Part shown: positions 41,951 to 57,204 of the stretch, piece by piece
Layout: each line of letters begins with the position of its first letter
How positions within the stretch are numbered: position 1 is the first letter of the stretch
Virus record (IMG/VR): IMGVR_UViG_3300025120_000019
Strand: one strand, 5' to 3'
Origin: a virus
DNA length: 64,000 nt
Notes under the pieces: generated by a model
Database searches by the model: none
What the model saw: the letters and a program-made list of their open reading frames with translations, nothing else
What the model was told of the DNA's origin: nothing
Translations under genes and position numbers: made by a program

Positions 41951-42405
41951 TGGGTTGGTACAGTCAAGTATCACGAGATATATCACAAATACCCGGTGCT
42001 ATACAACATTTTGAAGCAGAGCTTACTCAAGCTCGAGCCGAAGTAAAGTTAAAAGGAAGTGTAGAAAAAGCATCTTCTGAAATGCCAGGTATTGTTGAAC
42101 ATAGATTTAATCAATTACAAGAGATCGAAGCAATACTACATTACTTAAATATCGAGCTACGTAGATTGCGTAGCTCGTTTTTTAAGACATATCTTGAAAA
42201 CTATCAACGTGCATTATCTAGTAGAGACGTTGAGAAGTATGTTGACGGCGAAGCAGACGTAGTTGACTATGAAAAGATTATTAATGAATTTGCATTGTTG
42301 AGGAATAAATGGTTAGGTGTATTAAAAGGCTTAGATCAAAAACAATGGCAAATTACTAATATAGTAAAACTCAGAGTTGCTGGAATGGAAGATGCAACTT
42401 TGTAA
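41950..42405 (+). CDS. uvsY: Recombination mediator (UvsY-like)
   Basis: Helical; KYVDGEAD...KGLDQKQWQITNIVKLRVAG C-terminus; synteny with uvsX. Confidence 0.75.
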   Translation: MGWYSQVSRDISQIPGAIQHFEAELTQARAEVKLKGSVEKASSEMPGIVEHRFNQLQEIEAILHYLNIELRRLRSSFFKTYLENYQRALSSRDVEKYVDGEADVVDYEKIINEFALLRNKWLGVLKGLDQKQWQITNIVKLRVAGMEDATL

Positions 42406-42413
42406 ATACTGTT

Positions 42414-43145
42414 ATGACACTAACAGTTATTCTTCCTGCCGCCGGTAAAGGTGCAAGATTAAATTTACCATATCCAAAAGAAATCTTAAGACTTGATAAA
42501 AATCAAGCTTTAATAGATTATAGTTTTGACTTTTTTAAAGACTATACAAAAAACGATGTTGATTTTGTAATTGTAATTAACGAGTATAAAACTGAAATAG
42601 TTGAATACTTGTCAAAATATAAAAACAAGTACAATATTGCATTTGTTTATCAAAATCCTAAAGAATTAGAATACACGGGTGCAATAAAAAGTGCTTATAA
42701 CTGGTTTGGCGAAGATAATCTAGTACTGCTACCTGATACAATTTTAAAATTAAAAAATAACGTAGATTTGTATACAACAGTAAAAGATAGATTAGAAACA
42801 AATGAATTTGTATTTTTTTATAAAAAAGAATCAAATCCATCAATGCTATCAACAAAAGGTGCGTTACAAATAGAAAATAATCTAGTAAAGTTATATGAAG
42901 ATAAGCCTCAAACAAATTTTCAAAATTATAATGCTTATTGGTGTAGTTTTGCTTTTAGGGTTTCTAGTTTTGCTGACTCTATAAGTTATATGGAAAAAAG
43001 TACACTTAATCAAAAATTTAATACTAAACAAATGACGCTTACTCCTTTTTATAATACAGAAGGAATAGAAGTTGACGATTATGTTGATCTAGGAACTTGG
43101 AAAGAAATTAGAAAATTACTTGCATTGCATGAGGACGAACCATGA
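42414..43145 (+). CDS. Sugar-1-phosphate nucleotidyltransferase (RmlA/GalU-like)
   Basis: ILPAAGKGARL..PKEIL, YQ, LLPD, EDKP, DLGT. Confidence 0.85.
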   Translation: MTLTVILPAAGKGARLNLPYPKEILRLDKNQALIDYSFDFFKDYTKNDVDFVIVINEYKTEIVEYLSKYKNKYNIAFVYQNPKELEYTGAIKSAYNWFGEDNLVLLPDTILKLKNNVDLYTTVKDRLETNEFVFFYKKESNPSMLSTKGALQIENNLVKLYEDKPQTNFQNYNAYWCSFAFRVSSFADSISYMEKSTLNQKFNTKQMTLTPFYNTEGIEVDDYVDLGTWKEIRKLLALHEDEP

Positions 43146-44065
43146 AATTTTTTATTCCTGATTCTGTGATAGATAGATATAGCTTTAGGGCTAGAGGAAA
43201 ATTATTATTAGAAAATATGCCAAATAGTCATGGATATATAAAGGATTATAAATTAATTAAAGACACAAATGAATTGTACATTATTAGTAAAGAATTTACT
43301 AATGATATTATAGAACATTGTAATAAAAACAACATAAAGTACGTTTTAGATATATCAGATTATAAATTTTATAAAAATTCAGTATTAGAACTATATAAAA
43401 AAGCTACAGAAAATTGTAAGGCAATAGTTACTACTTGCGATCATCTTGCTGATGAAATAAAGAAAATTTTTGGAAAACCTTGTATTGTGATAGAAGATCC
43501 TACTGAACGTAAACAAATCAAACCAAATAAAAAAATATTTACTAAAAATGATAATATCAACTTAGTAACTTATGGTGCTAGAAAAAACATAGGATCAATA
43601 AACTTTGAAATTTTAAAACAACAATTATTTGACATACATCAAAATATACATTTAAAAATAATTACAAATAAAAGCATAGGAGATCCTACGGAATGGTTCG
43701 AGTGGAGTTTTGATTTACAAGAAAAACTTATGCATGAAGCTGATTTTATAATTTTACCTATTGCTTACACAGAAAAGAAAAAAGCTTTTTTAAAGTCAAA
43801 GGGCAATAATAGACCAATCGATGGTATACAACAAGGAAAATTTGTAATTACAAATAACACAATACCAAGTTATGTAGATTTAAATAATTTCCTTTGGGCT
43901 GGAAATATTGCAGAAGGATTACGCTATGCTATAGATAATCCTAATGAAGTTGTTCAAAAGATCACACTTGGACAAGAACATATTAATAAGTACTACACAC
44001 CTAAACATATAGTAACAAAATGGTTAAATTTAGAAAGGAAGATATTAAATGAAACAAGTTTTTAA
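43142..44065 (+). CDS. Putative glycosyltransferase (GT-B-like)
   Basis: VLDISD, ADFIILP, KGNNR...G..VIT motifs; glycan island context. Confidence 0.55.
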   Translation: MKFFIPDSVIDRYSFRARGKLLLENMPNSHGYIKDYKLIKDTNELYIISKEFTNDIIEHCNKNNIKYVLDISDYKFYKNSVLELYKKATENCKAIVTTCDHLADEIKKIFGKPCIVIEDPTERKQIKPNKKIFTKNDNINLVTYGARKNIGSINFEILKQQLFDIHQNIHLKIITNKSIGDPTEWFEWSFDLQEKLMHEADFIILPIAYTEKKKAFLKSKGNNRPIDGIQQGKFVITNNTIPSYVDLNNFLWAGNIAEGLRYAIDNPNEVVQKITLGQEHINKYYTPKHIVTKWLNLERKILNETSF

Positions 44066-44669
44066 TTATTGGCTTCCTGATTCAGATGTACATTTTGAAA
44101 AAATGATTAATAAACGTATAAGTCAAGGCGGTCCTGCAGAATATCAAGATGATGTTAGAGACGAAGCATATAAGTATGTACAACAATTCAATACAGCAAT
44201 CGATGTTGGTGCAAATGTAGGATTATGGACTGTTCCGTTATCAAAAAACTTTAACAAAGTAATATCGTTTGAGCCTATGACACAAGTTTATGAATGTTTA
44301 TTAGAAAATACAAAAGGTATTGATAATATTATTTTAAATAATTTTGCACTAGGTAGTGAACAAAAAAACGTAGATATGACATATGATCCAAACAATACAG
44401 GAAATAGTTTTATAAATGGTAATGAAGGAAGTATCAAAGTTAAAACACTTGACAAAAGTTTTATGCCTCCATTTGATCTTATAAAAATTGACTGTGAAAG
44501 ACACGAGCTTGAAGTTCTTAAAGGTGCAGTTAACACATTATTAAAATACAAACCTATTATTATTATTGAACAACAACCTATAACTGAAGAATGTGCAGGA
44601 AAATTTTTAAAAGATTTAGGTGCTAAAGAACTTAGTAATGTAAGGAAGGATTATATTTTTGGCTGGTAA
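44049..44669 (+). CDS. FkbM-family methyltransferase
   Basis: IDVGANVG, SFEP, ALG, IKIDCE..ELEVLKGA. Confidence 0.9.
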   Translation: MKQVFNYWLPDSDVHFEKMINKRISQGGPAEYQDDVRDEAYKYVQQFNTAIDVGANVGLWTVPLSKNFNKVISFEPMTQVYECLLENTKGIDNIILNNFALGSEQKNVDMTYDPNNTGNSFINGNEGSIKVKTLDKSFMPPFDLIKIDCERHELEVLKGAVNTLLKYKPIIIIEQQPITEECAGKFLKDLGAKELSNVRKDYIFGW

Positions 44670-45462
44670 CAATAAAACAGTTTTAGTCACTGGCGGCTTT
44701 GATCCAATACATTCAGGGCATCTTGCATATTTCAAAGCGGCTAAAAACTTAGGTAATAGATTAATTGTTGGTGTTAACTCTGATGAATGGTTAACTAGAA
44801 AAAAAGGTAAACCATTTATGCCGCTACAAGAAAGAGTAGAAATAATTAAAGGACTTTCTGTTGTAGATAAAGTTATTAGTTTTAACGATGATGATAATAC
44901 TGCGTCTCATGCTATTTTTAATACAATGTCAACTGAAAGTGGAAAAATTATTTTTGCCAATGGCGGAGACAGAACTGATGTAAACATTCCTGAAATGGAA
45001 GTGTACGGTAATCATCCTGGTGTAGAATTTGTATTTGGTATTGGAGGTGAGGACAAGAAAAATTCTAGCAGTTGGATATTAAAAGAATGGCGGGCACCAA
45101 AAGTAGAACGTGAATGGGGGCATTATAGAGAATTATATCAGGGCGAAGGCTTTCAAGTAAAAGAATTAGTTATTTCACCAAAGAGTAAATTAAGTATGCA
45201 AAGACATAAGTATAGAAGTGAAACATGGAATATTGTTTCTGGTGAAGCATATGTTAAAACGAATGTAACACTATCAGACAATCCATTTGACGGTTGTTCA
45301 ATTTGGAATTTACATCCAAATAATCCTGTAGATATTCCTGTAGGAATATGGCATCAAGGTTGTAATGATACTGATAAGCCTGCACACATAGTCGAAGTGT
45401 GGAAAGGACCAACTGATAAATTAACGGAGAAAGACATTGAACGAGCAGATTACAGAAATTGA
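44659..45462 (+). CDS. Cytidylyltransferase-like (HxGH) domain fused to cupin (phosphomannose isomerase type II-like)
   Basis: TGGFDPIHSGH, GVNSDEWL.RKKG, FANGGDR, SSS; then REWG.Y, LSMQRH.YRSETW, WHQ. Confidence 0.85.
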   Translation: MAGNNKTVLVTGGFDPIHSGHLAYFKAAKNLGNRLIVGVNSDEWLTRKKGKPFMPLQERVEIIKGLSVVDKVISFNDDDNTASHAIFNTMSTESGKIIFANGGDRTDVNIPEMEVYGNHPGVEFVFGIGGEDKKNSSSWILKEWRAPKVEREWGHYRELYQGEGFQVKELVISPKSKLSMQRHKYRSETWNIVSGEAYVKTNVTLSDNPFDGCSIWNLHPNNPVDIPVGIWHQGCNDTDKPAHIVEVWKGPTDKLTEKDIERADYRN

Positions 45463-47203
45463 ACCATTAAAAGTATACGTAGGCTGGGACAGTAGAGAAG
45501 ATATTGCATTTCAAGTTTGTAAACAAAGTATATTAGATCATGCAAGTGTACCTGTTGATGTAATACCTTTAAAGCAAAAAGATTTAAGAAGAGACGGAAT
45601 CTATACAAGAGAAACAGATGCAATGGCTAGCACTGAATTTACCTTTACAAGATTTTTAGTTCCACATTTAAATGACTTTACTGGCTGGGCATTGTTTATA
45701 GATTGCGACTTTGTATTTCTTGATGATATTAAAAAGTTATTTGATCAAGCAAATGATAGTTATGCAGTTATGTGTGCTCATCATGATTATTCTCCTAAAC
45801 AATTAACAAAAATGGACGGACAAGCACAGCATATATATCCAAGAAAAAATTGGTCAAGTTGTGTACTGTTCAATTGCGGTCATCCAAATAACGCACAGAT
45901 AAATTTAGATCTTGTAAATGATCCAAGTAAGGGCGGAGCATATTTTCATAGGTTTAGTTGGTTAGATGATAGTTTAGTTGGCGAATATAGTCATGAGTGG
46001 AATTGGCTTGTTGGCTGGTACGAAGAGCCTACAGATGGTGAGCCTAAAGCATTACATTATACAGAAGGAGGTCCTTGGTTTCCTGAATATGAAAACTGCG
46101 ATTATGCATACCATTGGTATAAAGCAAGAATAAGTTATGAAGAATATCTTAATGTAAAATATAATCAAGCATTAGAGAGTGGAGAAAATAAACGGCAACG
46201 GCAAATGGAAAAGTTCGAAGTCGAACGTTTAAAAACTACAACAGACACGCTAGTCCTTTCGGATCAAAAAAAAAAATTAGTAACTGACTTTATTCATTAC
46301 CTTAAAGACCCTGATGGAACATATTACAAAAGAGAACATAAATGGGAGAATATAATGGCTTTACGAGAACCCAGAGTTGCCGCTTTACATCCTGGTAACG
46401 ACGATGAGTTTGGTTTTAAACCTGAAAAGAAAGGATTTTTGTTTGATGAATATTTAGAAGCATTTGTATTAGGAGCAGATGGTGCTAAATTATCATCGTG
46501 GGAAGCAGAAGAACATACAAAGAATACATTATTAATAAGAGGGTTAGGTAAACAGAGTCAGCTTGCTATAAAACATTGTATGAAAACAGGTAGAGAATTT
46601 TATTATATTGATAGCGGATATATGGGCAATGAAACTACAAAAAGTAAAATATATCATCGTATTACAAAAAACGGTTTACAAAACACTGGACCTATTTTTC
46701 CTAGATCACGTAAAAGGCTTATGCCTCTAAAGTACTCATATTCTCCTTTTAAAATGAAAGGTGAAAAAATACTTTTAGTTCCACCTAGTGATAAAGTTAT
46801 GAAGTTTTGGGGCCAAGAAACACCTAACCAATGGGTTGCAAAAGTTAGTAAAGAATTAAAACAATATACAGATAGACCTATTGAGATTAGATTAAAACCA
46901 AAACGTAATGAACGTATAGCAGATAAAAATATTTTATTTGCATTAAGAGATAACGTATATTGTGTAGTGACTTATAATAGTATAGCCGCAACAGAAGCAC
47001 TACTAAATGGAATACCTGCTATTACTTTAGGAAATAATGCGGCTAGTGTATTGTGTAATGATAAATTAAGCGATATTAATAATTTATATGTTTACGAAGA
47101 AGAACAAATGCTCCAGTATGCGGCTCATTTAAGTTATTGCCAATTTACAAGAAGAGAAATGCAAGATGGCACTGCCTGGGCAATTTTAAATGAAAAGCTA
47201 TGA
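45437..47203 (+). CDS. Fusion: GT8-like glycosyltransferase + capsule-synthesis (KpsS/KpsC-like) domain
   Basis: YVGWDSRE, STEFTFTRF, FIDCD, PRKNWSS, HYTEGGPW; C-terminal IDSGY, IRLKP, VVTYNSIAATEALLNGIP; A11 tract and internal SD+ATG (46355) in the linker. Confidence 0.75.
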   Translation: MNEQITEIEPLKVYVGWDSREDIAFQVCKQSILDHASVPVDVIPLKQKDLRRDGIYTRETDAMASTEFTFTRFLVPHLNDFTGWALFIDCDFVFLDDIKKLFDQANDSYAVMCAHHDYSPKQLTKMDGQAQHIYPRKNWSSCVLFNCGHPNNAQINLDLVNDPSKGGAYFHRFSWLDDSLVGEYSHEWNWLVGWYEEPTDGEPKALHYTEGGPWFPEYENCDYAYHWYKARISYEEYLNVKYNQALESGENKRQRQMEKFEVERLKTTTDTLVLSDQKKKLVTDFIHYLKDPDGTYYKREHKWENIMALREPRVAALHPGNDDEFGFKPEKKGFLFDEYLEAFVLGADGAKLSSWEAEEHTKNTLLIRGLGKQSQLAIKHCMKTGREFYYIDSGYMGNETTKSKIYHRITKNGLQNTGPIFPRSRKRLMPLKYSYSPFKMKGEKILLVPPSDKVMKFWGQETPNQWVAKVSKELKQYTDRPIEIRLKPKRNERIADKNILFALRDNVYCVVTYNSIAATEALLNGIPAITLGNNAASVLCNDKLSDINNLYVYEEEQMLQYAAHLSYCQFTRREMQDGTAWAILNEKL

Positions 47204-48141
47204 AGAAAACTGTTGTAAGTTATTTAACTAGTGTTCCAAGAGGTAATACTAATGTCCAAAAAGAAGAACTGCTAATTAAGTTTTATAATGGTGTTTTACG
47301 TACTGGTGATAGTGCAACGCTACATAGAGATTATCACCCTATAGATTGTGATGCCGCTGTAATACAAGGGTGGGTATATTCAGATGTAAATCCTAGCCAT
47401 TTACAATTAAGAAAAAAAGTAATTAATCATCAAATTAAAAATAATAAACATACTATAGTTGCAGATGCAAATCTATTTTTATATGCTGACAAGAAAAATA
47501 GACATGGATATTTGCGTTATAGTTTGAACGGAGTTTTTCCTAACACAGGAATATATTGCGATGATATTATAGACGAACAAAGATGGAATAAAATATCAAT
47601 CAATAGCGGACTACAATTACAAGATTATAAAAAAGATGGCGATCATATTTTACTACTATTACAAAGGCAAGGTGGTTGGAGTATGAGCGGAGAAAGTGTA
47701 ATTGACTGGACTATTAGCACAATAGAAAAAATTAGGAGTGCTGGTTGTAAAAGAAGAATAAAAATAAGAGCTCATCCAGGCTGTAAACAATCACGTAACT
47801 TTTTTATAGAGCAAAAGAGTAACCCGTTTAGGCACTTGAAAAAAGTTGAAGTTGTGGATCCAAACAACTGGTTACAAAACGATTTACAAAATTGTTATGC
47901 AGTAGTAAACAAAAATAGTAGCGGAATTGTTGGACCAATTATACAAGGCTATCATGCTTTTACTACTGATCCTACAAAAAGTCAATGTGCAGAAGTAAGT
48001 AATCATAGTATATTAGATATTGATAACCCTAAAGAATTTGATAGATTAAAATGGCTTAGGCGTATAAGTATGTTTCATTGGAATTTTCAAGAATTAGAAA
48101 GTGGCGAATGTTGGAACCATATAAGGAACTACTGCCAGTAG
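47200..48141 (+). CDS. Capsule-synthesis-like glycosyltransferase (KpsS/KpsC, GT107-like)
   Basis: ILLLLQR, IRAHPG, AVVNKNSS...IIQG. Confidence 0.55.
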   Translation: MKKTVVSYLTSVPRGNTNVQKEELLIKFYNGVLRTGDSATLHRDYHPIDCDAAVIQGWVYSDVNPSHLQLRKKVINHQIKNNKHTIVADANLFLYADKKNRHGYLRYSLNGVFPNTGIYCDDIIDEQRWNKISINSGLQLQDYKKDGDHILLLLQRQGGWSMSGESVIDWTISTIEKIRSAGCKRRIKIRAHPGCKQSRNFFIEQKSNPFRHLKKVEVVDPNNWLQNDLQNCYAVVNKNSSGIVGPIIQGYHAFTTDPTKSQCAEVSNHSILDIDNPKEFDRLKWLRRISMFHWNFQELESGECWNHIRNYCQ

Positions 48142-48971
48142 TTTTCTTTGCGATTAACCATTAAATCTTTTTGTAAACTTTTACCTGTATTTTTTCTATC
48201 GCCCTTCATATGATCAATATATTTTCCTAATTCAGTATTAATTAACGGATGGCCACCGCCTCCGGTTTTAGCTTCTTTTAAATACATTTCTGCACTATAA
48301 TCCAATACATTATTATCAGTAGCTTTCATTATGTTTAATATATGTCCAAATACATAACTATCATGCCATTCTTCTAATTTAAAAATTCCATTCTCAGCGT
48401 CTTCATAAAATCTTTCAAATTCTTTTAAGAACTGTACACACATTGAATGATTTTTATTCATACCGTAGAATCCGCACTCTGGCCATGTTTGTGATCCTTT
48501 ACCCCTGCCCACATAAGTTAACCATTTATCATTTGGTAGTAAAGATTCAAATTGCTTTTGTGACCAATTGCTATGAACAAATGTATCTGCGTCCATCCAT
48601 ACACACCAATCTGTACTTCGTTCAAATGCATCTAATACTGCATAAACTTTATTAGCAAAGCGTACAGCATTCCATTTAAATTCTTTATGATGATCTCGAG
48701 GTCTACGAGCTTTAATATCGTCTGGCGGAATGCCATTTGCTTTTGGAACATCTTTCCAGCGTTTTTTGAACTCCATAAGTTTAGGTAATAGTTGTCTTGT
48801 CTGAAGTTCAAAAACACGATGTCTTCCTACAATAGCCGGAAAGCAATCTTCTGCATACACAAATAACTTGATAGATTCGTCAACATTTTCTTCAAACGAT
48901 TCGATAAATCTCTGTCCGTATAAATCCATTCCTTGTTTATTGAATGTTGTTACCACAGTTATTGCTGACAT
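48129..48971 (-). CDS. GT-A fold glycosyltransferase; start refined to ATG 48971 (MSAITVVTTF)
   Basis: AVRFANKV, WMDAD (DxD), ECGF, WHDSYVF, HMKG. Confidence 0.7.
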   Translation of the reverse strand: MSAITVVTTFNKQGMDLYGQRFIESFEENVDESIKLFVYAEDCFPAIVGRHRVFELQTRQLLPKLMEFKKRWKDVPKANGIPPDDIKARRPRDHHKEFKWNAVRFANKVYAVLDAFERSTDWCVWMDADTFVHSNWSQKQFESLLPNDKWLTYVGRGKGSQTWPECGFYGMNKNHSMCVQFLKEFERFYEDAENGIFKLEEWHDSYVFGHILNIMKATDNNVLDYSAEMYLKEAKTGGGGHPLINTELGKYIDHMKGDRKNTGKSLQKDLMVNRKENYWQ

Positions 48972-48985
48972 TTTGTTTCCCTTGT

Positions 48986-49008
48986 TAAATAGTGTACTGG
49001 AGTATTTA
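48986..49008. promoter_or_regulatory. Crossing late promoters (plus TAAATA 48986-48991; minus TAAATA 49003-49008)
   Basis: Located in the 40-nt gap between two divergent glycosyltransferase genes. Confidence 0.6.
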
Positions 49009-49011
49009 CTT

Positions 49012-49863
49012 ATGAAATTCAGATTATGGAGAGAATATGGAGCGAACAATTCCCGTACTATTTTTGATGCTTTCGAACATTCTTGTATTAGTAATGGGCA
49101 TACTATTAGTAATGATACTAATATTAACAATTCCGATGTTCATGTTATTTGGAGTGTGCTTTTTAACGGGCGAATGGCTAGTAATAAACATATTTGGACC
49201 AGTTGTCAAAAACGCAAAAAGCCGGTTATTGTATTAGAAGTAGGCAGTATAAAAAGAGGAATAACATGGAAGGTAGGACTTAATGGAATCAATCGTGACG
49301 CACAGTTTGGCACTATGGGTAACAATGCTGATCGTGCTAATAGCCTTGGGTTATCTTTAAAACCTTGGCGTAAAGCAGGAGATCATATATTAATATGTGG
49401 TCAACATGAAAAAAGTTTACAATGGCAAAATATGCCAAAAATGAGTAAATGGGTAACAAGTATAATAGACGAAATAAAACTGTATACAGACTTATCAATT
49501 GTATTTAGACCGCATCCAAGATGTTTATTAGAAGCACTTGAAAATCAATATACAAATGTATATACTGATGCGCCGCAAAAAGTAAACGGAACATATGACG
49601 ACTTTAATCTTAGTTTTAAAGACAGTTATGCTGTTATAAACTGGAGTAGTAATCCTGGAATACAAGCTGTTATTAATGGTATTCCTGCATTTACTGGTCC
49701 AAGTAGTTTAGCATGGCCGGTTTCTAACACAGGCTTAAAAACAATCAACAATCCAAATAAACCAGAAAGACAACAATGGTTAAATGATTATGCATGGACA
49801 GAATTTACTGAAGAAGAAATAAGTAAAGGCATTCCCTTGAAAAGATTGACAAACTATATATAG
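49012..49863 (+). CDS. Capsule-synthesis-like glycosyltransferase (KpsS/KpsC, GT107-like); start refined to ATG 49012
   Basis: VLEVG, ILICGQH..S.QW, FRPHPR, AVINWSSNPGIQAVINGIP; GGAG SD. Confidence 0.6.
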   Translation: MKFRLWREYGANNSRTIFDAFEHSCISNGHTISNDTNINNSDVHVIWSVLFNGRMASNKHIWTSCQKRKKPVIVLEVGSIKRGITWKVGLNGINRDAQFGTMGNNADRANSLGLSLKPWRKAGDHILICGQHEKSLQWQNMPKMSKWVTSIIDEIKLYTDLSIVFRPHPRCLLEALENQYTNVYTDAPQKVNGTYDDFNLSFKDSYAVINWSSNPGIQAVINGIPAFTGPSSLAWPVSNTGLKTINNPNKPERQQWLNDYAWTEFTEEEISKGIPLKRLTNYI

Positions 49864-49874
49864 TTTGTTATAAT
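49846..49874 (+). promoter_or_regulatory. Consensus sigma70 promoter TTGACA-17-TATAAT overlapped by a perfect 20-bp palindrome
   Basis: TTGACA 49846-49851, TATAAT 49869-49874; acaaactata|tatagtttgt at 49849-49868. Confidence 0.85.
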
Positions 49875-49879
49875 AAACT

Positions 49880-51121
49880 ATGACAAGTACAGAAAACATA
49901 GAAGATTTGTTACAAGTAGTTCTGGGCAAACACAATCATGAGTTTGTTTTAAAAAATGCTGATCTTACTTTATTAAATAGTTTTGATAGACAAATAAACA
50001 AAGGTGTTGCGTTAACTGATAGGCAACATAATTTATTAAAAACAAAATTACAAATTTATAAAAATCAATTTATAAAATATGAAATTAGAAACTGGCAATA
50101 TTCTCTTGAAACAACAAGAAGTCCGTTTAGAGAAATTGACCGTAGTAAGTATATTACTGTTGTAGATAAATCAAAAATTATTGGACATGATAGATCGTAT
50201 CTTACACTTAAAGATGGAGATTATATAAAAGTAAGATTTCCATTTAATAAAAAACATATTTCTAAATTAGAAAGCTGTTTACTAAAAACAAAAAGAAATG
50301 AATACTTTCATGAAAAAAATTCACACGAGCATTATTTTTTGTTTGATTCAAAAATATGTTATAATTTAGTTGATAATTTTCCTACATGGAATACAGATAA
50401 AGTTATTATAGATACTGCTAAAAAAGTTGAAGATATTATCAACAACAAAAATAATTACATACCTTATTATAAAGATAATAAATTTTTTAACATATCACCA
50501 AATGTTACCGATATTGTACAAAAACTATCTGACGAAAAATCGATAGCAGATAAGTCAATTAAATATGGCTTCTTTTTAAACAATAATAAAAAAATAGATA
50601 CACTGTTAGATAAGATTGCTTATAGAAAAGAACCAGCAGTATTAGCAGATCAAAACAAATATACTATATATAACATTGCCGATGTATTTGATCATCTCAA
50701 TAGATATCCAATAATTGTTTGCTTAGATAAAGATGATTCTTACTTTCAGCTACAAGAATTATATAACGGATTTTCAAAATACGTACCTAATGAGTTACAA
50801 AGCATTTTGTTTCGAATTGAAAGTTCAGATAAAACAAATGTTCAGTTAAATGAATTTGTAAAAGATAAAAAGTTAAATAACTGGGTAGACAATAAAACAA
50901 AAATAGTGTATATTAAAAAAGATAAACTACCTAAAGTTTTATTGAAAAGTTCGTTTAAACCAACAACTGCATTTTGTAAATCAAGTCTTCGACCTAGTAG
51001 ATTAGTTACTAGCTACATTACTTTTAATTGTGATTTGATAGCATACAATGATACAGATTTAAGTAACTTTAAACAAACTTATAATAAAGGATTCAATTCT
51101 TGGCAACTTGTAAACTTATAA
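49880..51121 (+). CDS. Hypothetical protein upstream of uvsW
   Basis: 413-aa ORF directly behind a consensus promoter; no motif recognised. Confidence 0.65.
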   Translation: MTSTENIEDLLQVVLGKHNHEFVLKNADLTLLNSFDRQINKGVALTDRQHNLLKTKLQIYKNQFIKYEIRNWQYSLETTRSPFREIDRSKYITVVDKSKIIGHDRSYLTLKDGDYIKVRFPFNKKHISKLESCLLKTKRNEYFHEKNSHEHYFLFDSKICYNLVDNFPTWNTDKVIIDTAKKVEDIINNKNNYIPYYKDNKFFNISPNVTDIVQKLSDEKSIADKSIKYGFFLNNNKKIDTLLDKIAYRKEPAVLADQNKYTIYNIADVFDHLNRYPIIVCLDKDDSYFQLQELYNGFSKYVPNELQSILFRIESSDKTNVQLNEFVKDKKLNNWVDNKTKIVYIKKDKLPKVLLKSSFKPTTAFCKSSLRPSRLVTSYITFNCDLIAYNDTDLSNFKQTYNKGFNSWQLVNL

Positions 51122-52563
51122 TAGAGGACGAGGTAAACATTAAACTTGAAGGACTTGATGTTGACGTACGAAGAAAGTTAGCAAATAGTCTTAAGTTTGA
51201 GGTGCCTTATGCTAGGTATATGCCTCAATATAAATTAGGACGTTGGGATGGTAAGGTTGCATTTTTTGGTATTGGTGGTACAGGTTATGTAAATCATCTT
51301 GATACTATCACAGATGTATTAGCAAAAAACAAAGTACAAATAGTTGATATAGACGATAGGCGGCATCCAATTAAATTGAACTTTACTCCTGTTACAGAAC
51401 GCTACTGGGCCGACCAAGGTGTTGTATGGCCACAAGGTCATCCTGCAGAAGGTGAAGATGTAATTCTGCGTGATTATCAAGTAGAAGCAGTTAATAATTT
51501 TTTACAAGCACCACAAAGCTTGCAACAAATTGCTACCGGAGCAGGTAAAACTATAACTACTGCAACACTTAGTCATCTTGGAGAAAAGTACGGAAGAAGT
51601 ATTGTTGTTGTACCAAACAAAAGTCTTGTTGTACAAACTGAAGAAGATTATATAAATTGCGGATTAGACGTTGGTGTTTATTTTGGAGATAGAAAAGAAC
51701 TAGGAAAAACACATACAATTTGTACCTGGCAAAGTTTAAATATATTAGATAAAAAACATAAAGACGGTGATGCAGTTTTAAGTCTTGCAGAATTTTTGGA
51801 TGGAGTAACAACTGTAATTGTTGACGAAGTACATCAAGCAAAGGCAGAAGTACTTAAAAATTTGCTTACACGCAATCTAAAAAATGCTCCAATACGTTGG
51901 GGACTTACTGGTACAATACCAAAAGAAAAGTTTGAATTTGAAAGTATACACGCTAGTTTAGGTCCAGTTATTGGAGAAATTAGTGCAAAGGAACTACAAG
52001 ACAAAGGTGTACTTGCTCAGTGTCACGTAAACATTGTACAGCTACTTGATACCCAAGTACACAGTAATTATCAAGAAGAATTAAAATATCTTGTAACAAA
52101 TCAAGATAGAATAGAATATTTAGGCAAATTATTAAACACAGTAAGAGAAGCAGGCAATACATTAATACTAGTAGACCGAATAAGTGCTGGTGAACAATTA
52201 CAAACACTTATACCTAATAGTACATTTGTTAAAGGCGATGTTAAATTAAAAGATAGAAAAGAAGCATATGACGAAATTAATCAAGGGACTAACCATGTTG
52301 TTATTGCAACGTATGGCGTTGCATCCGTTGGCATCAATATTCCTAGGATATTTAATCTTGTACTTATTGAGCCTGGCAAGTCATTTGTTCGTGTGATTCA
52401 ATCAATTGGTAGAGGCGTAAGAAAGGCAAAAGACAAAGACTTCGTTCAGATATGGGATCTTACATCAACGTGTAAGTTTGCGAAGCGGCATCTAACTCAA
52501 CGTAAAAAGTTTTACAAAGAGGCGCAGTACCCATTCACCATTGAAAAGGTAGATTGGAAATAA
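51100..52563 (+). CDS. uvsW: SF2 DNA helicase (UvsW-like)
   Basis: LRDYQ, ATGAGKT, VDEVH, GLTGT, GINIP, QSIGRG.R. Confidence 0.9.
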   Translation: MATCKLIIEDEVNIKLEGLDVDVRRKLANSLKFEVPYARYMPQYKLGRWDGKVAFFGIGGTGYVNHLDTITDVLAKNKVQIVDIDDRRHPIKLNFTPVTERYWADQGVVWPQGHPAEGEDVILRDYQVEAVNNFLQAPQSLQQIATGAGKTITTATLSHLGEKYGRSIVVVPNKSLVVQTEEDYINCGLDVGVYFGDRKELGKTHTICTWQSLNILDKKHKDGDAVLSLAEFLDGVTTVIVDEVHQAKAEVLKNLLTRNLKNAPIRWGLTGTIPKEKFEFESIHASLGPVIGEISAKELQDKGVLAQCHVNIVQLLDTQVHSNYQEELKYLVTNQDRIEYLGKLLNTVREAGNTLILVDRISAGEQLQTLIPNSTFVKGDVKLKDRKEAYDEINQGTNHVVIATYGVASVGINIPRIFNLVLIEPGKSFVRVIQSIGRGVRKAKDKDFVQIWDLTSTCKFAKRHLTQRKKFYKEAQYPFTIEKVDWK

Positions 52564-53069
52564 TGAATATACTCACGCTCGAGAACCAGAGTTTTAATTT
52601 AACTACTATACCTGACGAAGTTGATGATTCTTTAAGATTTAGTGTTTTAGATAATAGTAATCCGCAAGATCCGGATTTCTTTTTTATACCATTGATTTTT
52701 TTAGAAAGCTTCAGTGCGCCAGCAGTAGTTTTAGATATTGACGGACAGTCTGTTACTATGCCATTAGATTGGTGTGTAGCAGTTGGATGTAGTCAATCAG
52801 GAAGTGATTTAGAAGTCCTTCCATTAACAAGTCTTAATCAACGTGGCTTCGAAGCTTACTTGTTTAATCCTCTTACAGGAAGCAAACCTAAATTTGGCAA
52901 AATAGAAATTACAAGTTTTTATAATGATGTGAAATGGTATTTTCCAAAAATAAAAACTGGACAATTACTAAGTATTCCTATAACTACAGGAAACAATCCT
53001 GATTGTGCATTTTTTGTAAAAGACATTAACAGGCAAAGTGAAGTTATAGATTATGGTAAATTATTATAG
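52563..53069 (+). CDS. Beta-rich hypothetical protein translationally coupled to uvsW (possible degenerate Hint fold)
   Basis: TAATG coupling; beta-strand pattern; fold call is speculative. Confidence 0.55.
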   Translation: MNILTLENQSFNLTTIPDEVDDSLRFSVLDNSNPQDPDFFFIPLIFLESFSAPAVVLDIDGQSVTMPLDWCVAVGCSQSGSDLEVLPLTSLNQRGFEAYLFNPLTGSKPKFGKIEITSFYNDVKWYFPKIKTGQLLSIPITTGNNPDCAFFVKDINRQSEVIDYGKLL

Positions 53070-53080
53070 GAGAAAAGATA

Positions 53081-53233
53081 ATGAACAAATATTTAGGAAT
53101 AATTTTTTGGTCAATGCTAGTTGTTGCAGGTGTACTTGGTTATATTGCAACTGATCAACTTGAAAATAGACTAGATAATATGGAAAGTAAGATCGAAGAT
53201 ATAAACACTATGCTAAAGGAGATGAGCGAATGA
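53081..53233 (+). CDS. Small membrane-anchored coiled-coil protein (50 aa), not in ORF track
   Basis: AGGAG SD; MNKYLGIIFWSMLVVAGVLGYIATDQLENRLDNMESKIEDINTMLKEMSE; ATGA overlap with next gene. Confidence 0.7.
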   Translation: MNKYLGIIFWSMLVVAGVLGYIATDQLENRLDNMESKIEDINTMLKEMSE

Positions 53234-53574
53234 AGGCAGGAAAAATTTGGGGACAAACTGAATTAATCCACGCAAACGGTGTGCTTGAATTTCATCGTAT
53301 TGAATACAAAGCAGGATTCAAATGTTCTGAGCATGAGCATAAATTTAAATGGAATGGATTCTTTGTTGAGTCAGGCAAAATGATTGTCAGAGTTTGGCAA
53401 GAAGATCAAGGACTTGTCGACGAAACAATTCTTACCGGTGGACAGTTTACACAAGTAAAGCCGGGTAAAATACATCAATTTGAAGGACTAGAAGACGGCG
53501 TTGCATTTGAATTATATTGGGCTGAATTTAATCACGATGATATTGTAAGAAGGACCGCCGGATCAAATGTATGA
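53230..53574 (+). CDS. Cupin-domain protein
   Basis: KIWG, CSEHEH..K...F.V.SG, PGKIHQF. Confidence 0.8.
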   Translation: MKAGKIWGQTELIHANGVLEFHRIEYKAGFKCSEHEHKFKWNGFFVESGKMIVRVWQEDQGLVDETILTGGQFTQVKPGKIHQFEGLEDGVAFELYWAEFNHDDIVRRTAGSNV

Positions 53575-54119
53575 CAAAACTTTCAACTGAATACTTAGAA
53601 CAACTTAAAAAACTACATAGTACTTCATCTTTTGGTAGCGGTAAAGGATTACCTAAGGATGTAGTAGATTTAATTAATAATGATACAAAGTCTATTTTAG
53701 ACTTTGGTAGTGGTAAAGGATATACATCCGAATGGATAAAAAATACATATCCTAATATTAATCTTTATACATATGACCCAGTTACTTCGCCTATACAATT
53801 ACCAACAGAAGTTGATATTACCTATAGTAGTGATGTACTAGAACACGTTGAACCTGCACACATAGATCAAACATTAGATACATTGTTTAGTATAACCAAA
53901 AAGTATCAGTATCATTTAATAGCGTGTCATCCTGCAAAAAAATTATTATCAGATGGAAGGAATGCACACTTGATTGTTGAATCTCCGGAGTGGTGGAAAA
54001 ATAAAATTCAAAAATATAATTGGGAAATAGTTAGTGAAAAAATAAAAGAAAATTATAGAGAAAAATTTAATCTTAATGTTATAAAATACATTGTCTTATT
54101 AAGAAATAAAGCGGAATAA
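53571..54119 (+). CDS. Class I SAM-dependent methyltransferase
   Basis: ILDFGSGKG, YDP, DVLEHVEP, GRNAHL...WW. Confidence 0.85.
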   Translation: MTKLSTEYLEQLKKLHSTSSFGSGKGLPKDVVDLINNDTKSILDFGSGKGYTSEWIKNTYPNINLYTYDPVTSPIQLPTEVDITYSSDVLEHVEPAHIDQTLDTLFSITKKYQYHLIACHPAKKLLSDGRNAHLIVESPEWWKNKIQKYNWEIVSEKIKENYREKFNLNVIKYIVLLRNKAE

Positions 54120-54123
54120 TTTA

Positions 54124-54318
54124 ATGAAAAACTGGACTAAAAATTCTCCATATAGAAACAAAGACAAAGATGAAATTGCTGATATATTTTATGAACAATT
54201 CAAAAAGCATGGTGTTAGACTTCCAGAAACATATACAGAGCAAGAACTAATTGACTTAAATCCTGGAGTTCCTGTATGGTTCACTAAACAACATATGAAA
54301 TTGAGAGACAAAAAATGA
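54124..54318 (+). CDS. Small hypothetical protein
   Basis: Fills the gap; ATGA overlap with gap. Confidence 0.55.
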   Translation: MKNWTKNSPYRNKDKDEIADIFYEQFKKHGVRLPETYTEQELIDLNPGVPVWFTKQHMKLRDKK

Positions 54319-55274
54319 AAGTAGGTATAAATGGATTTGGCCGAATTGGAAGGTGTTTAGCAAGACATATTATGAGCGAACGCAGTGATATGGAACTTGT
54401 ACAAATTAATGCAACAGGTGGGCAAGAAACGAACTTGCATTTGTTAAAATATGATAGTGTACATGGACGATACACAGGGCCAATACAAGATCCTATACTG
54501 TGGACACAAGAACGTGATATAAGCAAAATAAGATGGTTTAATGTTGATATTGTATTTGAATGCACTGGTGCGTTTAGAGATGGCGATGTTTGTATGCATC
54601 ATGTATCAGGGGGTGCAGGAAAAGTAGTTATTAGTAGCCCAGCAAAGAATGTAGACAAAACAGTTGTATACGGAGTTAATCATAAAGATATAGGCAGTAG
54701 CGATTATATAGTAAGCAATGCTAGTTGTACAACAAATTGTTTAGCACCTCTTGTTAAAGTCTTAGACGAAACAGTTCATATTATTTCTGGTCAAATGACA
54801 ACAATACATAGTTATACTGGTGACCAAAGTACAATAGATAAACGCCATAAAGATCCATATCGTGCTAGAGCCGCAGGTGCAAATATGATACCAACTAGCA
54901 CAGGAGCCGCTAAAGCATTAGATATAGTATATCCTAAACTTGCTGGTAAAATAAAAGGAAGTTCGATACGTGTTCCAACACCTAATGTAAGTTGTGTTGA
55001 TTTGACTGTGCAAGTAGGGCGTGAAGTAGATAGTGATACTATTAATACTATTTTTAAACTTAGTTCAGAAAACGATATGAAAGATATAATTGGTTATGAA
55101 GAAGATCCTTGTGTAAGTATTGATTTTAATACTACAAGAGAGAGTGCAATATTTGCTCCAGAACAAACAAGAGTTTCAGATAACCATTTAGTAAGAATAC
55201 TCGCATGGTATGATAATGAATGGGCTTTTTCGTGTAGGATGGCCGATGTTGGAAATTATATAGGTAGCTTATGA
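54315..55274 (+). CDS. gap: Type I glyceraldehyde-3-phosphate dehydrogenase (auxiliary metabolic gene)
   Basis: GINGFGRIGR, ECTG.F, SNASCTTNCLAP catalytic motif, HSYTGDQ, IPTSTGAAKA, RVPT, WYDNE. Confidence 0.95.
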   Translation: MKVGINGFGRIGRCLARHIMSERSDMELVQINATGGQETNLHLLKYDSVHGRYTGPIQDPILWTQERDISKIRWFNVDIVFECTGAFRDGDVCMHHVSGGAGKVVISSPAKNVDKTVVYGVNHKDIGSSDYIVSNASCTTNCLAPLVKVLDETVHIISGQMTTIHSYTGDQSTIDKRHKDPYRARAAGANMIPTSTGAAKALDIVYPKLAGKIKGSSIRVPTPNVSCVDLTVQVGREVDSDTINTIFKLSSENDMKDIIGYEEDPCVSIDFNTTRESAIFAPEQTRVSDNHLVRILAWYDNEWAFSCRMADVGNYIGSL

Positions 55275-55558
55275 TAAATCAAAGAATAAAGGCAGGAGTA
55301 AAGTTAATAGAAGGCGAGGCTTTAATATATACTAGAGCAAATGGTGTAATATACGCTAATTATAGAGATCCACCGCATAATAAAATTCCAAGATGGATAA
55401 TAGGAGGAGACCCTGCCGCAGTAGCAAGAGAACAAGGCGAATTATTAGATTACAGTGAATGGCAAAACTTATGTGAAATTGCAATTCAAAATCCCACATT
55501 AAAAAAGTTGTTAGATAAACTTGTAACAACATATTATATTATAAAGGAACACAAATAA
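55271..55558 (+). CDS. Hypothetical protein
   Basis: Coupled ORF. Confidence 0.6.
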   Translation: MINQRIKAGVKLIEGEALIYTRANGVIYANYRDPPHNKIPRWIIGGDPAAVAREQGELLDYSEWQNLCEIAIQNPTLKKLLDKLVTTYYIIKEHK

Positions 55559-55791
55559 TGTTAAAAACAAATTCAATGTTAAATAAACTTTTAGAATGGC
55601 TAATTGGTGGTAGTAGTATTACATTAGCAATCGTTTATACAATAGGTCATATGTTTATTGCTATTGTATGCGTAATCACCATTACAGGTGCAAGTATTGA
55701 ACTTGCGGCAATTGATGCCTTAGTTGAACCTATTATTAATGGTGTATGGTTTTATGTGTTACATACAGCATGGAAAAGATTTCAAAAATAA
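55558..55791 (+). CDS. Small two-TM membrane protein (DUF2061-like)
   Basis: Hydrophobic; EP..N..WFY.LH..W pattern. Confidence 0.6.
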   Translation: MLKTNSMLNKLLEWLIGGSSITLAIVYTIGHMFIAIVCVITITGASIELAAIDALVEPIINGVWFYVLHTAWKRFQK

Positions 55792-56570
55792 TGAGAATAA
55801 TATCAGGCCCTTGCCAGCACGAAAGCTTAGAACAAAGTTTAGAAATTGCACAGCATTGTAATGATGTATGTAGTAAGTATAATGCAGAATATTTTTTTAA
55901 AGCAAGTTTTGATAAAGCTAATAGAAGTAGTTTAGGTGGGAAACGTGGAGTAGGCTTTAATACAACACTACACGACTTCCAAGAGATACGTAGTATAGTG
56001 GGCTCTAAGACGCTTACAGACGTTCATACAGTAGAACAAATTAAAGATATAGTAAACTACCACAATACTGCCGTAGACGTGCTACAGATACCTGCATTCT
56101 TATGTAGACAAACTGATTTACTACAAGAGGCTTGTGCTACAGATAAAATTGTAAACATCAAGAAAGGCCAGTTCCTTGCACCCTGGGACATGAATGGAAT
56201 ACTGTCAAAGACAGAAGGTGCCAGAGAAGTTTGGATAACAGAGAGAGGAACAAGTTTTGGATATAATACTCTTGTTGTTGATTTTACTGGCTTGGACTAT
56301 ATGCTTAGTAATTACGATACTCCTGTGGTTCTTGATGCCACCCACTCGGTACAGAAGCCAGGCGGTCTCGGAGGCAGTAGCGGCGGCAATCGCAATTACG
56401 TTCCTAGTTTATGTAGGGCAGGTAGTGCTTTGGGTATTAGGAATTTCTTTTTAGAAGTACATCCAGATCCAGATAATGCACCTAGTGACGGACCTAATAT
56501 GTTAAATTTAAATGACTTTGAAAAAGTAGTAAAGGAGATACATGACTACAGCTATACTAATTCCAGCTAG
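55791..56570 (+). CDS. kdsA: Kdo 8-phosphate synthase; start refined to ATG 55791
   Basis: GPC..E, FKASFDKANRSS, TDVH, QIPAFLCRQTDL, KKGQF, ERG.SFGY, DATHSVQ.PG, EVHPDP..A.SDG. Confidence 0.95.
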   Translation: MRIISGPCQHESLEQSLEIAQHCNDVCSKYNAEYFFKASFDKANRSSLGGKRGVGFNTTLHDFQEIRSIVGSKTLTDVHTVEQIKDIVNYHNTAVDVLQIPAFLCRQTDLLQEACATDKIVNIKKGQFLAPWDMNGILSKTEGAREVWITERGTSFGYNTLVVDFTGLDYMLSNYDTPVVLDATHSVQKPGGLGGSSGGNRNYVPSLCRAGSALGIRNFFLEVHPDPDNAPSDGPNMLNLNDFEKVVKEIHDYSYTNSS

Positions 56571-57204
56571 ATATGCAAGCACAAGATTCCCAGGAAAAAT
56601 GATGGCACACCTTAATGGAGTGCCGTTGATTGAACACGTTTATAATAGATGTGCAGGCACTGGATATGATACATATGTACTAACCGATCACCAAGATGTT
56701 TTTAATCATATGGGTGGTAAATGTCTTATGACAACAGATGCAGATAATGGAACTGAACGTTGTATGCAAGTTATAGATGAAAAGCTACAATATGATAGAT
56801 ATATAAATGTACAAGGGGATATGCCAGATATTACTACAGATATTATCAAAGCTGTAGAAAGAGAACTGCAACGTAGTGATGTAGCAACTGCTTATACACC
56901 GATGGATTTTAACTTGCGAAATGATCCAAACTGTGTTAAAATGATACATAACAGAGGACGAGCACACTGGTTTTTACGAGCAAGTTTAACTTACGGAGAT
57001 CATCATTTAGGAATATATGGCTATAATAGAGAATCCAAAGCTATGTATAATATAAGTAAAAAGTTTCCTGAAGAAGATATTGAAAAGTTAGAACAGTTAC
57101 GCTGGATACAAAACGGTATAAAGATTGGTGTAGTTGAAGTAGAATTTGATGGGATTGAAATAAACACTCCGGAGGATTTAGAAAAGTGGCAAACAAAGAA
57201 CTAG
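56542..57204 (+). CDS. kdsB: CMP-Kdo synthetase
   Basis: IPARYASTRFPGK, GTER, NVQGD, HLGIYGY, EKLEQLR, INTPEDL. Confidence 0.93.
   Translation: MTTAILIPARYASTRFPGKMMAHLNGVPLIEHVYNRCAGTGYDTYVLTDHQDVFNHMGGKCLMTTDADNGTERCMQVIDEKLQYDRYINVQGDMPDITTDIIKAVERELQRSDVATAYTPMDFNLRNDPNCVKMIHNRGRAHWFLRASLTYGDHHLGIYGYNRESKAMYNISKKFPEEDIEKLEQLRWIQNGIKIGVVEVEFDGIEINTPEDLEKWQTKN

Follow-up and report, generated by a model that had tools for sequence, protein, structure and literature searches.

Two Kdo-pathway genes and a glycan cassette with three paralogous Kdo-transferase-like modules were found in the window, i.e. the whole 64,000-nt stretch of viral DNA that was analysed. The modules, named GT1C, GT2 and GT3, were recognised as distantly homologous to KpsC, WbbB and KrkA and similar to them in structure, an assignment supported by profile and structure searches. 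The source is an uncultured marine T4-like giant phage, and both gene sets are located in a hyperplastic region around uvsW (Table 1). An earlier note on this DNA had proposed that the phage builds a Kdo-containing glycan of its own; this idea is plausible but unproven. The preferred reading, held here with evenly balanced confidence, is that of two separable modules, kdsAB and a soluble glycosyltransferase cassette containing the Kdo-transferase-like paralogues, with the glycan made in the cytoplasm.

Table 1. Features of the glycan cassette and the kdsAB block (positions in the window)
Feature	Position	Strand	Basis
Sugar-1-P nucleotidyltransferase	42414-43145	+	Pfam, NCBIfam
Possible GT-B	43142-44065	+	Atlas lead to Glyco_trans_1_2
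FkbM methyltransferase	44049-44669	+	Pfam, NCBIfam
Cytidylyl/adenylyltransferase-cupin fusion	44659-45462	+	Pfam, NCBIfam
GT1N, GT8/GT24-like retaining GT-A domain, N-terminal half of 588-aa fusion	45437-46354	+	PHROG, Pfam, fold
GT1C, KP-type Kdo-transferase-like module, C-terminal half of fusion	46355-47203	+	BLASTP, motif columns
GT2, G-type Kdo-transferase-like enzyme (QRQGG; RAHPG; NKNSS...G)	47200-48141	+	BLASTP, motif columns
GT-A-like glycosyltransferase (WMDAD)	48129-48971	-	Weak match to Pfam family GT2, 0.0035
GT3, S-type Kdo-transferase-like enzyme (QHEKS; RPHPR; NWSSNPG...G.P)	49012-49863	+	Model, fold search
Perfect sigma70-type promoter (TTGACA, 17-nt spacer, TATAAT, TG)	49846-49874	+	12/12 match
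Cupin, class I methyltransferase, small ORF and GAPDH-like gene, between uvsW and kdsA	53230-55274	+	Pfam
kdsA, Kdo-8-phosphate synthase	55746-56570	+	NCBIfam, Pfam
kdsB-like CMP-Kdo synthetase, short form, 220 aa	56542-57204	+	Pfam, NCBIfam, PDB

The kdsA assignment was confirmed at the sequence level. Its product cleared the curated NCBI KdsA cut-offs, with 333.9 bits for NF003543 (cut-off 242) and 319.7 for TIGR01362 (cut-off 314), and matched Pfam DAHP_synth_1 at 4e-51. Homology begins at about residue 13, and the Met at 55770 may be the true start. The second gene probably encodes a KdsB in short form. Its product passed PF02348 (CTP_transf_3) at 1e-23, and all 13 PDB sequence matches were KdsB structures (best 1e-31). 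The top NCBIfam matches were also all KdsB, under their cut-offs (best NF003952, 170 bits vs 193). Of 80 related viral loci, 78 have kdsB next to kdsA. Both genes thus stand as the earlier note had described them, and so does its statement that KdsD and KdsC are missing from the window: no SIS (KdsD) or HAD-phosphatase (KdsC) domain was present in the window ORFs scanned. The complete four-enzyme Kdo pathway (KdsD, KdsA, KdsC, KdsB) is not encoded in the window. The gene pair would cover the second and the fourth of the four reactions that lead to CMP-Kdo, and arabinose-5-P isomerase (KdsD) and Kdo-8-P phosphatase (KdsC) would have to be supplied by the host.

The three related glycosyltransferase domains of the earlier note were found to be true paralogues and to lie in ORFs at the expected places. 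BLASTP matched GT3 to GT2 at 5e-12 and to GT1C at 1e-14. The kinship of GT1C and GT2 runs through GT3, because their direct match reached just 0.32. GT1C has no gene of its own: a single 588-aa ORF (45437-47203) encodes it as the C-terminal half of a fusion with a GT8-like domain. None of the three modules was recognised by any model in Pfam, NCBIfam and PHROG searches, and PF05159 (Capsule_synth) gave no match to them even at E up to 10. GT3 has 4621 homologues, none of the 120 listed carrying a Pfam domain, and the family comprises 4739 clusters at 50% identity. It is a very large, mostly viral family without a name, and a sister of the retaining beta-Kdo transferases (GT99, GT107, GT140). 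KpsC and KpsS represent CAZy GT107 and Pfam PF05159 and are retaining beta-Kdo transferases of group 2 capsule linkers.

A family profile was built from 120 sequences and searched against the PDB. Its only specific matches were KpsC (6mgd, 3.8e-4) and WbbB (2e-3), the latter spanning the HP and NS...G.P region. Weak matches to PF05159 were obtained for 10 of the 120 members (best 3e-8), and one tested QxxxD-type member scored 19.5 bits, under the 20-bit cut-off. The AF2 model of GT3 (pLDDT 97.4) adopts the fold typical of retaining beta-Kdo transferases, a modified two-Rossmann (GT-B-like) one. In the VIA ranking of this model KpsC (Z 14.0), WbbB (13.0) and KrkA (10.6) lead, KpsC 6mgc being superimposed with an rmsd of 4.0 across 236 residues. 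The top 15 entries were all KpsC, WbbB or KrkA (Z 14.0 to 10.4), and generic GT-B enzymes reached at most 9.5 with an rmsd above 6. Foldseek placed WbbB first (3e-7); ranks 1-21 were KpsC, WbbB or KrkA, and KpsC appeared again down to rank 29. The model of the fusion matched KrkA at 4e-5 and KpsC at 2e-4; these matches were assigned to GT1C because GT1C is homologous to GT3. The comparison with KpsC and WbbB suggested in the earlier note was thereby carried out by structure and by profile, and beta-Kdo transferases came first in both.

In the known enzymes, the Asp of the QXXXD motif is the nucleophile, its Gln binds the Kdo carboxylate, and the HP motif provides acid catalysis for the departure of CMP (PMC10148158, PMC9587256, PMC12887879). 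In the PDB profile alignment, Asp165 of KpsC-C aligns to the Q+4 column of the phage family. This column holds Ser in GT3 (QHEKS), Gly in GT2 (QRQGG) and Val in GT1C (PSDKV), and over 120 family members it holds S in 69, D in 26 and G in 18. Other positions are highly conserved in the family (Q in 118, H in 116 and P in 117 of 120), and Asp42 (112/120) and Arg108 (113/120) are nearly invariant. The Gln is kept in GT2 and GT3 and is replaced by Pro in GT1C. The HP motif reads RAHPG in GT2 and RPHPR in GT3, and RLKP in GT1C, with His changed to Lys; GT1C (PPSDKV, RLKP) is hence without Gln, Asp and His. From the motifs listed in the earlier note, RLKP was recovered in GT1C, and R.HP and NS...G.P in the other two modules, but the Gln of 'IL...Q' is absent from GT1C. 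The GT107/GT99-like identity considered in that note holds for homology and fold and fails at the QXXXD Asp. Membership of GT1C, GT2 or GT3 in GT107 or GT99 by the defining catalytic motif is not supported, as the Asp nucleophile, a hallmark of all characterised enzymes with this type of fold, is missing in all three.

KpsC is the best structural and best PDB profile match of the phage family. KpsC and KpsS share the Gln, R.HP and (T/N)S...G.P motifs with GT2 and GT3, and solubility and multi-module occurrence with the phage modules; they differ in that the phage modules are viral, about 12-15% identical, unmatched by PF05159 and without kpsMTED/FU context. WbbB (GT99), the O-antigen terminator of Raoultella terrigena, shares the fold, the profile match and the multidomain glycosyltransferase setting, but its Asp232 has no phage equivalent, and it exceeds the phage enzyme by about 110 residues and contains additional helical insertions. 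KrkA (GT140), the E. coli K13 capsule polymerase, shares the fold and likewise fuses a Kdo-transferase-like module to a second glycosyltransferase. In the phage fusion, unlike KrkA, the Kdo-like module is C-terminal and devoid of Q, D and H, and it is joined to a GT8-like domain instead of a ribosyltransferase.

The motif states suggest a donor and a chemistry for GT2 and GT3. Both retain the Gln that would contact the ulosonic-acid carboxylate, the His-Pro that would serve the CMP leaving group and a putatively nucleotide-binding NS...G.P; we infer a CMP-activated ulosonic acid as donor, most probably CMP-Kdo. The same superfamily includes KpsS1 (GT118), a retaining pseudaminic-acid transferase of A. 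baumannii (PMC12887879), which by its description indicates that the fold can accept CMP-ulosonic acids besides Kdo. The donor therefore need not be Kdo. No pse or neu genes are present in the window. The covalent Asp-Kdo (double-displacement) route would not be usable by GT2 and GT3, and direct displacement is therefore most likely, which would yield alpha-Kdo. WaaA/KdtA (GT30) is the sole known inverting Kdo transferase family (PMC9587256). If the prediction for the phage enzymes is right, single displacement and the use of CMP-Kdo would be common to both, but GT30 is a separate GT-B lineage and is not among the fold matches listed.

GT1N was matched to phrog_28018 at 2e-48, and its Pfam GT8 match was weak (20.3 bits vs a cut-off of 24.3). 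Fold matches of the fusion model for this half were WbbM, GlyE, LgtC, the UGGT catalytic domain and XXYLT1 (1e-6 to 1e-5). The predicted GT-A fold carries the DXD motif of the GT8/GT24 clan, read directly as DCD in FIDCDFVF. In T4-like phages, in Mosig and in the Caulobacter phage CcrColossus, GT1N is either fused to a KP-type module or lies next to one. GT1C may belong to a bifunctional enzyme in which it assists a GT8-like hexosyltransferase as a non-canonical partner or by binding the acceptor. Another reading is that all nucleophile-less modules are catalytically dead and act as scaffolds that bind sugars or nucleotides, or as chain-length or acceptor-binding subunits for the GT-A enzymes. 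The KP-type module, devoid of Gln, Asp and His yet retained at 32 to 86% identity and always beside GT1N, is consistent with this, as are the copies in Mosig, which are all degenerate (KP-type). Such a role for the whole set is nevertheless highly improbable: Q, R.HP and NS...G.P, as kept in GT2 and GT3, are near-invariant across thousands of clusters, a pattern that would be difficult to account for if no ligand chemistry took place.

The cassette enzymes all appear to be soluble, as judged from their sequences; no hydrophobic segment was found in any of them. Among the window ORFs scanned there was no priming transferase, flippase, ABC exporter, KpsMTED-type or other lipid-carrier or export gene, and no Pfam domain of a group 2 capsule (kps) context, KpsMT exporter, KpsED or KpsF/KpsU. 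Because every enzyme appears soluble and lipid-carrier and export genes are absent, the glycan would probably be assembled in the cytoplasm upon a phage or host macromolecule, with virion proteins as the favoured acceptor. The gene order in CcrColossus favours this reading: there the family member comes immediately after the tail protein gene and is accompanied by a 'sialyltransferase' and a GT9 gene. Alternatively, the enzymes might work on the cytoplasmic side of the inner membrane and modify glycolipids of the host, either the LPS core or a lipid anchor of KpsS/KpsC type, and so provide superinfection exclusion or evasion of grazers and phages. KpsC and KpsS are soluble or peripheral although their acceptor is a lipid (PMC10148158), the net charges of GT2 and GT3 are +10 and +7, and PMC5332604 and PMC12801897 cite a 'lock-out' hypothesis to explain LPS genes in phages. 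The missing carrier and export genes argue against this reading, as do the short time a lytic T4-like phage has for surface turnover and the position of the CcrColossus homologue between tail and lysis genes. It is regarded as distinctly improbable.

The genes from 42414 to 45462 form the upstream part of the glycan cassette. The GT-A-like gene on the opposite strand was found in 41 of 80 related loci, including every locus with the Kdo-transferase-like family. In the uvsW-kdsA interval, the cupin gene is present in 66 of 80 related loci and the GAPDH-like gene in 1 of 80. The sigma70-type promoter precedes orf49880 and uvsW and divides the cassette from the kdsAB block; the strict pattern recurred in 24 of 39 related loci, though its -35 box overlaps conserved RLT codons of GT3.

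The set of one S-, one G- and one KP-type module recurs as a conserved unit in some 38 related viral loci, and wherever a related locus reaches far enough, kdsAB and this trio lie in synteny. Independent lineages with kdsAB and the family are G004 and megaphage LR756500, in the latter of which a QxxxD family member lies 3.7 kb from kdsA-kdsB. The link is nonetheless loose: the co-occurrence that the earlier note had offered as a check was seen in the syntenic loci, but each set was also found alone. The distribution independent of kdsAB that the earlier note had named as grounds for refutation is therefore seen in part. Two phage genomes of 342-345 kb (G001 and G002, 95-99% complete) contain the trio and neither kdsA, any CTP_transf_3 gene nor neuB; locus L101 has the trio at the exact syntenic position and no kdsAB. 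Pelagibacter phage Mosig has the reduced form, two members of KP-type only, and kdsA, a CTP_transf_3 gene and neuB were not found in it. Conversely, cyanophage S-SCSM2R, whose KdsA is 40% identical to that of the phage and whose kdsB adjoins a GT1N homologue, has kdsAB (PMC12801897) and no KpsC-like family member.

These patterns bear on the reading that kdsA-kdsB is a stand-alone auxiliary module which boosts host CMP-Kdo for LPS and outer-membrane upkeep during infection, the cassette being unrelated and using other donors. In published work, kdsA and kdsB of viruses are described as common LPS AMGs of the surface ocean, and kdsA is reported from the complete genome of an environmental virus (PMC10653327, PMC5332604). 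The separate occurrence of both sets, the promoter between the blocks and the lack of the catalytic Asp also point in this direction. Against it, the only sequence and structure relatives of the modules are Kdo transferases, Gln and His-Pro are kept in two of them, and two individually rare gene sets occur together in at least three lineages. Since hosts make CMP-Kdo already, a cassette could use Kdo even where kdsAB is missing. A stand-alone function is considered somewhat unlikely.

Virus-encoded KdsA and KdsB have been published for S-SCSM2R (PMC12801897) and as marine viral AMGs (PMC5332604, PMC10653327). CroV and Fadolivirus carry full Kdo pathways (PMC9614988), CroV differing from the present phage in encoding the isomerase and the phosphatase too. 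None of these four reports ties a viral Kdo pathway to KpsC-like transferases. In its most specific form, the preferred reading of a cytoplasmic glycan would make the Ser- and Gly-type enzymes new, mainly viral inverting alpha-Kdo transferases on a retaining scaffold, which together with the GT8-like/KP enzyme would glycosylate virion proteins in the cytoplasm. This full version is quite doubtful. If true, it would be the first viral Kdo protein glycosylation system, and one widespread in marine phages.

The three transferase-like domains of the window (GT1C, GT2 and GT3) were identified as paralogues through GT3, which matched GT2 at 5e-12 and GT1C at 1e-14; GT1C and GT2 were linked only via GT3. 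None was recognised by Pfam (E up to 10), NCBIfam or PHROGs. The search with GT3 yielded 4621 homologues at E <= 1e-3 in 90% clusters, and the 120 listed among them were all unnamed or 'hypothetical' and without a Pfam domain. The resulting family comprises at least 4739 representative clusters at 50% identity, mostly marine viral, and the Atlas clusters closest to it are viral. When bacterial genomes were queried with GT3, a single match was obtained, in a phage-like contig of a metagenome-assembled genome. This 44.6-kb contig (L101, JBDNIA010000151.1) is syntenic with the window and was binned with Crocinitomicaceae (Bacteroidota), which either points weakly to a host or reflects a binning artefact. 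Query P0235 gave no match in viral contigs, and query P0272 none in bacterial genomes.

An alignment of 120 family members (A2) was used for profile and model building. Its near-invariant columns, in GT3 numbering, are Q131, R166, H168, P169, S213, G223 and P225, and Pfam matches of its members were to Capsule_synth (10 sequences, weak, best 3e-8), DUF6716 (11) and polysialyltransferase (2). An initial profile of eight sequences (A1) matched a single PDB entry, an Lmo1076 repeat judged to be spurious, and the deeper A2 was required; its only specific matches in the PDB were KpsC (6mgd, 3.8e-4) and WbbB (5fa0, 2e-3). The AlphaFold2 model of GT3 generated from A2 (pLDDT 97.4, pTM 0.92) was compared with the PDB using Foldseek; ranks 1-21 were occupied by WbbB, KpsC and KrkA (best 3e-7), and KpsC recurred down to rank 29. 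VIA-align of the model gave Z scores of 14.0 for KpsC-N (rmsd 4.0, 236 residues), 13.0 for WbbB and 10.6 for KrkA, against 9.5 or less, with rmsd above 6, for ordinary GT-B enzymes. Viral models with the GT3 fold came from uncultured phages, Caulobacter phage CcrColossus and Tetraselmis virus 1. In the latter, a giant virus of a green alga, four proteins share the fold (TM 0.66-0.75, BFVD), and the family therefore extends to viruses of eukaryotes.

Kdo counts as a hallmark of Gram-negative envelopes. To our knowledge, it is attached only by inverting enzymes of GT30 and by the Asp-dependent retaining families GT99, GT107 and GT140. In retaining beta-Kdo transferases, the Gln of an invariant QXXXD motif holds the Kdo carboxylate, the Asp of this motif is the covalent nucleophile, and the His of an HP motif protonates the CMP leaving group (PMC10148158, PMC9587256, PMC12887879). 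Alignment of the family profile to KpsC placed the family Gln on Gln161 of KpsC-C and the nucleophile Asp165 on the family Q+4 column, which holds S in 69, D in 26 and G in 18 of the 120 members. The description of the domains as KpsC/KpsS-like in the earlier note holds for fold and distant homology, but not for the nucleophile, which is replaced by S, G or V in the window. GT1C, GT2 and GT3 differ in this respect from GT99, GT107 and GT140, and were not placed in these families because none could form an Asp-Kdo adduct. Two of the three modules keep the Gln that binds the carboxylate, the HP motif and the nucleotide motif NS...G.P, which argues for a CMP-ulosonic acid as their putative donor and for a different chemistry, probably a single displacement. 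The family as a whole retains the donor-binding motifs of Kdo transferases, but most members have exchanged the catalytic nucleophile.

The KP-type module GT1C was read as a non-canonical partner and not as a Kdo transferase, since Q, D and H are all lost. The earlier count of three domains was correct for paralogous modules, but the first is no separate gene; it makes up the C-terminal part of a 588-aa ORF, the N-terminal half (GT1N) being a GT8-like GT-A domain. A KP- or P-type module, a QxxxG/HP module and a QxxxS/HP module occur together in about 38 related loci, with a QxxxD member added in only two; Pelagibacter phage Mosig has just two degenerate KP-type copies. Fusion of the KP-type module with the GT8-like domain was seen in the window and in loci that include L005, L054, L056 and L101; L007, L016, L071, L087 and others encode the module as a gene of its own next to that domain. 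The fusion junction is considered evolutionarily labile, because in relatives the halves are sometimes fused and sometimes encoded by two overlapping genes. The adjacency was also found in Mosig and, in reversed order, in CcrColossus (gp128-gp129). An AF2 model of the fusion (pLDDT 84) consists of two folded domains and a helical linker, and its fold matches fell into two groups, GT8/GT24 enzymes (WbbM, GlyE, LgtC, UGGT) and the Kdo transferases KrkA and KpsC; by homology, the former would belong to the N-terminal and the latter to the C-terminal domain. In this the fusion is similar to KrkA and other bifunctional polymerases. The DNA for the low-confidence helical linker contains a run of 11 A.

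Features of the window
Feature	Position	Strand	Details
TnsA-like endonuclease domain gene	30964-31398		1.5e-21
Terminator-like hairpin	42153-42177		11-bp stem then T6; within ORF 41950-42405
GT1N	45437-46354		GT8-like half of 588-aa ORF
11-A run	46266-46276
GT1C	46355-47203		Q motif PSDKV; HP motif RLKP
GT2	47200-48141		Q motif QRQGG; HP motif RAHPG
GT-A-like gene	48129-48971	opposite
GT3	49012-49863		Q motif QHEKS; HP motif RPHPR
Perfect sigma70-type promoter	49846-49874		TTGACA, 17-nt spacer, TATAAT, upstream TG; -35 box in last GT3 codons
uvsW	51100-52563		unbroken
GAPDH-like gene	54315-55274		full-length; Gp_dh_C 3e-56
kdsA	55746-56570		above curated cut-offs of two KdsA equivalogs
kdsB	56542-57204		just below NCBIfam cut-offs; passes PF02348; KdsB only among solved-structure matches
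PRPP synthetase, then NodU/CmcH-type carbamoyltransferase	61872-64000		at window edge

The ORF positions of the earlier note were borne out, and kdsA and kdsB are real on the evidence listed in the table. KdsD and KdsC, reported as absent, were also not detected here, as no SIS (KdsD) or HAD (KdsC) domain was found in the window. Two ORFs, orf57186 and orf49880, were considered as the missing KdsC or KdsD and rejected; they have no Pfam match and no HAD-type motif. The GAPDH-like gene between uvsW and kdsA was present in only one of 80 related loci and was therefore regarded as a recent accessory gain. Viral kdsA and kdsB have been published previously (PMC12801897, PMC5332604, PMC10653327), as have the Kdo pathways of CroV and Fadolivirus (PMC9614988).

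The proposed link between kdsAB and the glycosyltransferases was analysed in 80 IMG/VR loci retrieved with KdsA as query (68-92% identity). In 78 of them kdsB adjoins kdsA, and the glycosyltransferase set was present in unchanged order wherever the upstream flank was sufficient. Since these loci represent one lineage, the co-presence is synteny and not independent support. Both elements were found together in two independent lineages: the complete 170-kb genome G004 carries six to seven family members, kdsA and a kdsB-like gene, and in megaphage LR756500 a distance of 3.7 kb separates kdsA-kdsB from a canonical QxxxD member. They were also found apart. Two genomes, G001 (342 kb, 95% complete) and G002 (345 kb, 99%), contain the cassette and no kdsA, CTP_transf_3 gene or neuB; L101 retains the cupin gene, orf55271 and orf57186 in synteny, with kdsAB missing; and cyanophage S-SCSM2R has kdsAB beside a GT1N homologue and no family member. 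Mosig also lacks kdsA. The association is real but facultative. It agrees with phages drawing on CMP-Kdo of the host and at times adding a supply of their own, and is just as compatible with kdsAB as an independent AMG. In S-SCSM2R, the hypothetical proteins of genes 262 and 263 (L001:13398-14859), located between kdsB and the GT1N homologue, are candidates for another type of enzyme that uses Kdo, as they matched neither Pfam nor the KpsC-like profile.

The sigma70-type promoter separates the cassette from orf49880-uvsW...kdsAB, which speaks against the link, and was recovered in 24 of 39 related loci. It ends 6 nt ahead of the orf49880 ATG, and an early transcript of orf49880 and uvsW with no leader or a very short one is therefore predicted. 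Late promoters of the cassette were not established: TATAAATA occurred four times against 13.8 expected, and TAAATA cores, located 11, 26 and 37 nt upstream of 42414, 49012 and 48971, also precede several structural genes, the hexamer being common. A strong terminator-like hairpin lies just upstream of the cassette.

The window has a G+C content of 33-38% and encodes T4-type tail sheath, gp15-like protein, terminase, gp32, UvsX, UvsW and primase. The stretch was seen again in marine metagenomes from several studies. Among 50,697 phage records, none matched 45437-57204 by megablast. A TnsA-like domain gene is located amid the structural genes, and the PRPP synthetase and carbamoyltransferase genes at the edge may be additional genes for glycan tailoring or nucleotides. 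In some relatives uvsW is broken into two or three ORFs (L101:12054-14866, gap of about 870 nt; L057-L060), which suggests an intron, intein or homing-endonuclease insertion.

Regarding the acceptor, no hydrophobic segment was found in any cassette enzyme, and no priming transferase, flippase or exporter in the window. The CcrColossus homologue is located between a tail protein and lysis genes, together with a 'sialyltransferase' and a GT9 gene, and a small podovirus homologue adjoins terminase and a TibC-like protein heptosyltransferase. DNA glycosylation was considered as target of the cassette because beta-gt of T4 lies beside uvsX; no hydroxymethylase was found in the window, and this target is considered very improbable. 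Maf enzymes are described as able to attach Kdo to proteins (bioRxiv 10.1101/2020.06.03.131540). Together with the lack of hydrophobic segments and export genes and with both gene contexts, this weakly favours cytoplasmic glycosylation of virion proteins.

No paper was found in the literature that ties viral kdsA/kdsB to KpsC-like enzymes or describes the nucleophile-less family. New here are the motif-state analysis, the conserved trio with the GT8/KP pair, and the cases in which cassette and kdsAB occur apart. If the family is inactive or takes a different donor, it is a mistake to annotate phage kdsA/kdsB together with 'capsule synthesis' genes routinely as a Kdo-glycan pathway. If it is active, the known chemistry of ulosonic-acid transfer would be extended, and abundant ocean phages, including relatives of cultured SAR11 and Caulobacter phages, would make a common, unrecognised glycan. 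Such a glycan would bear on host recognition, virion stability and the reading of 'LPS-type AMGs' in viromes.
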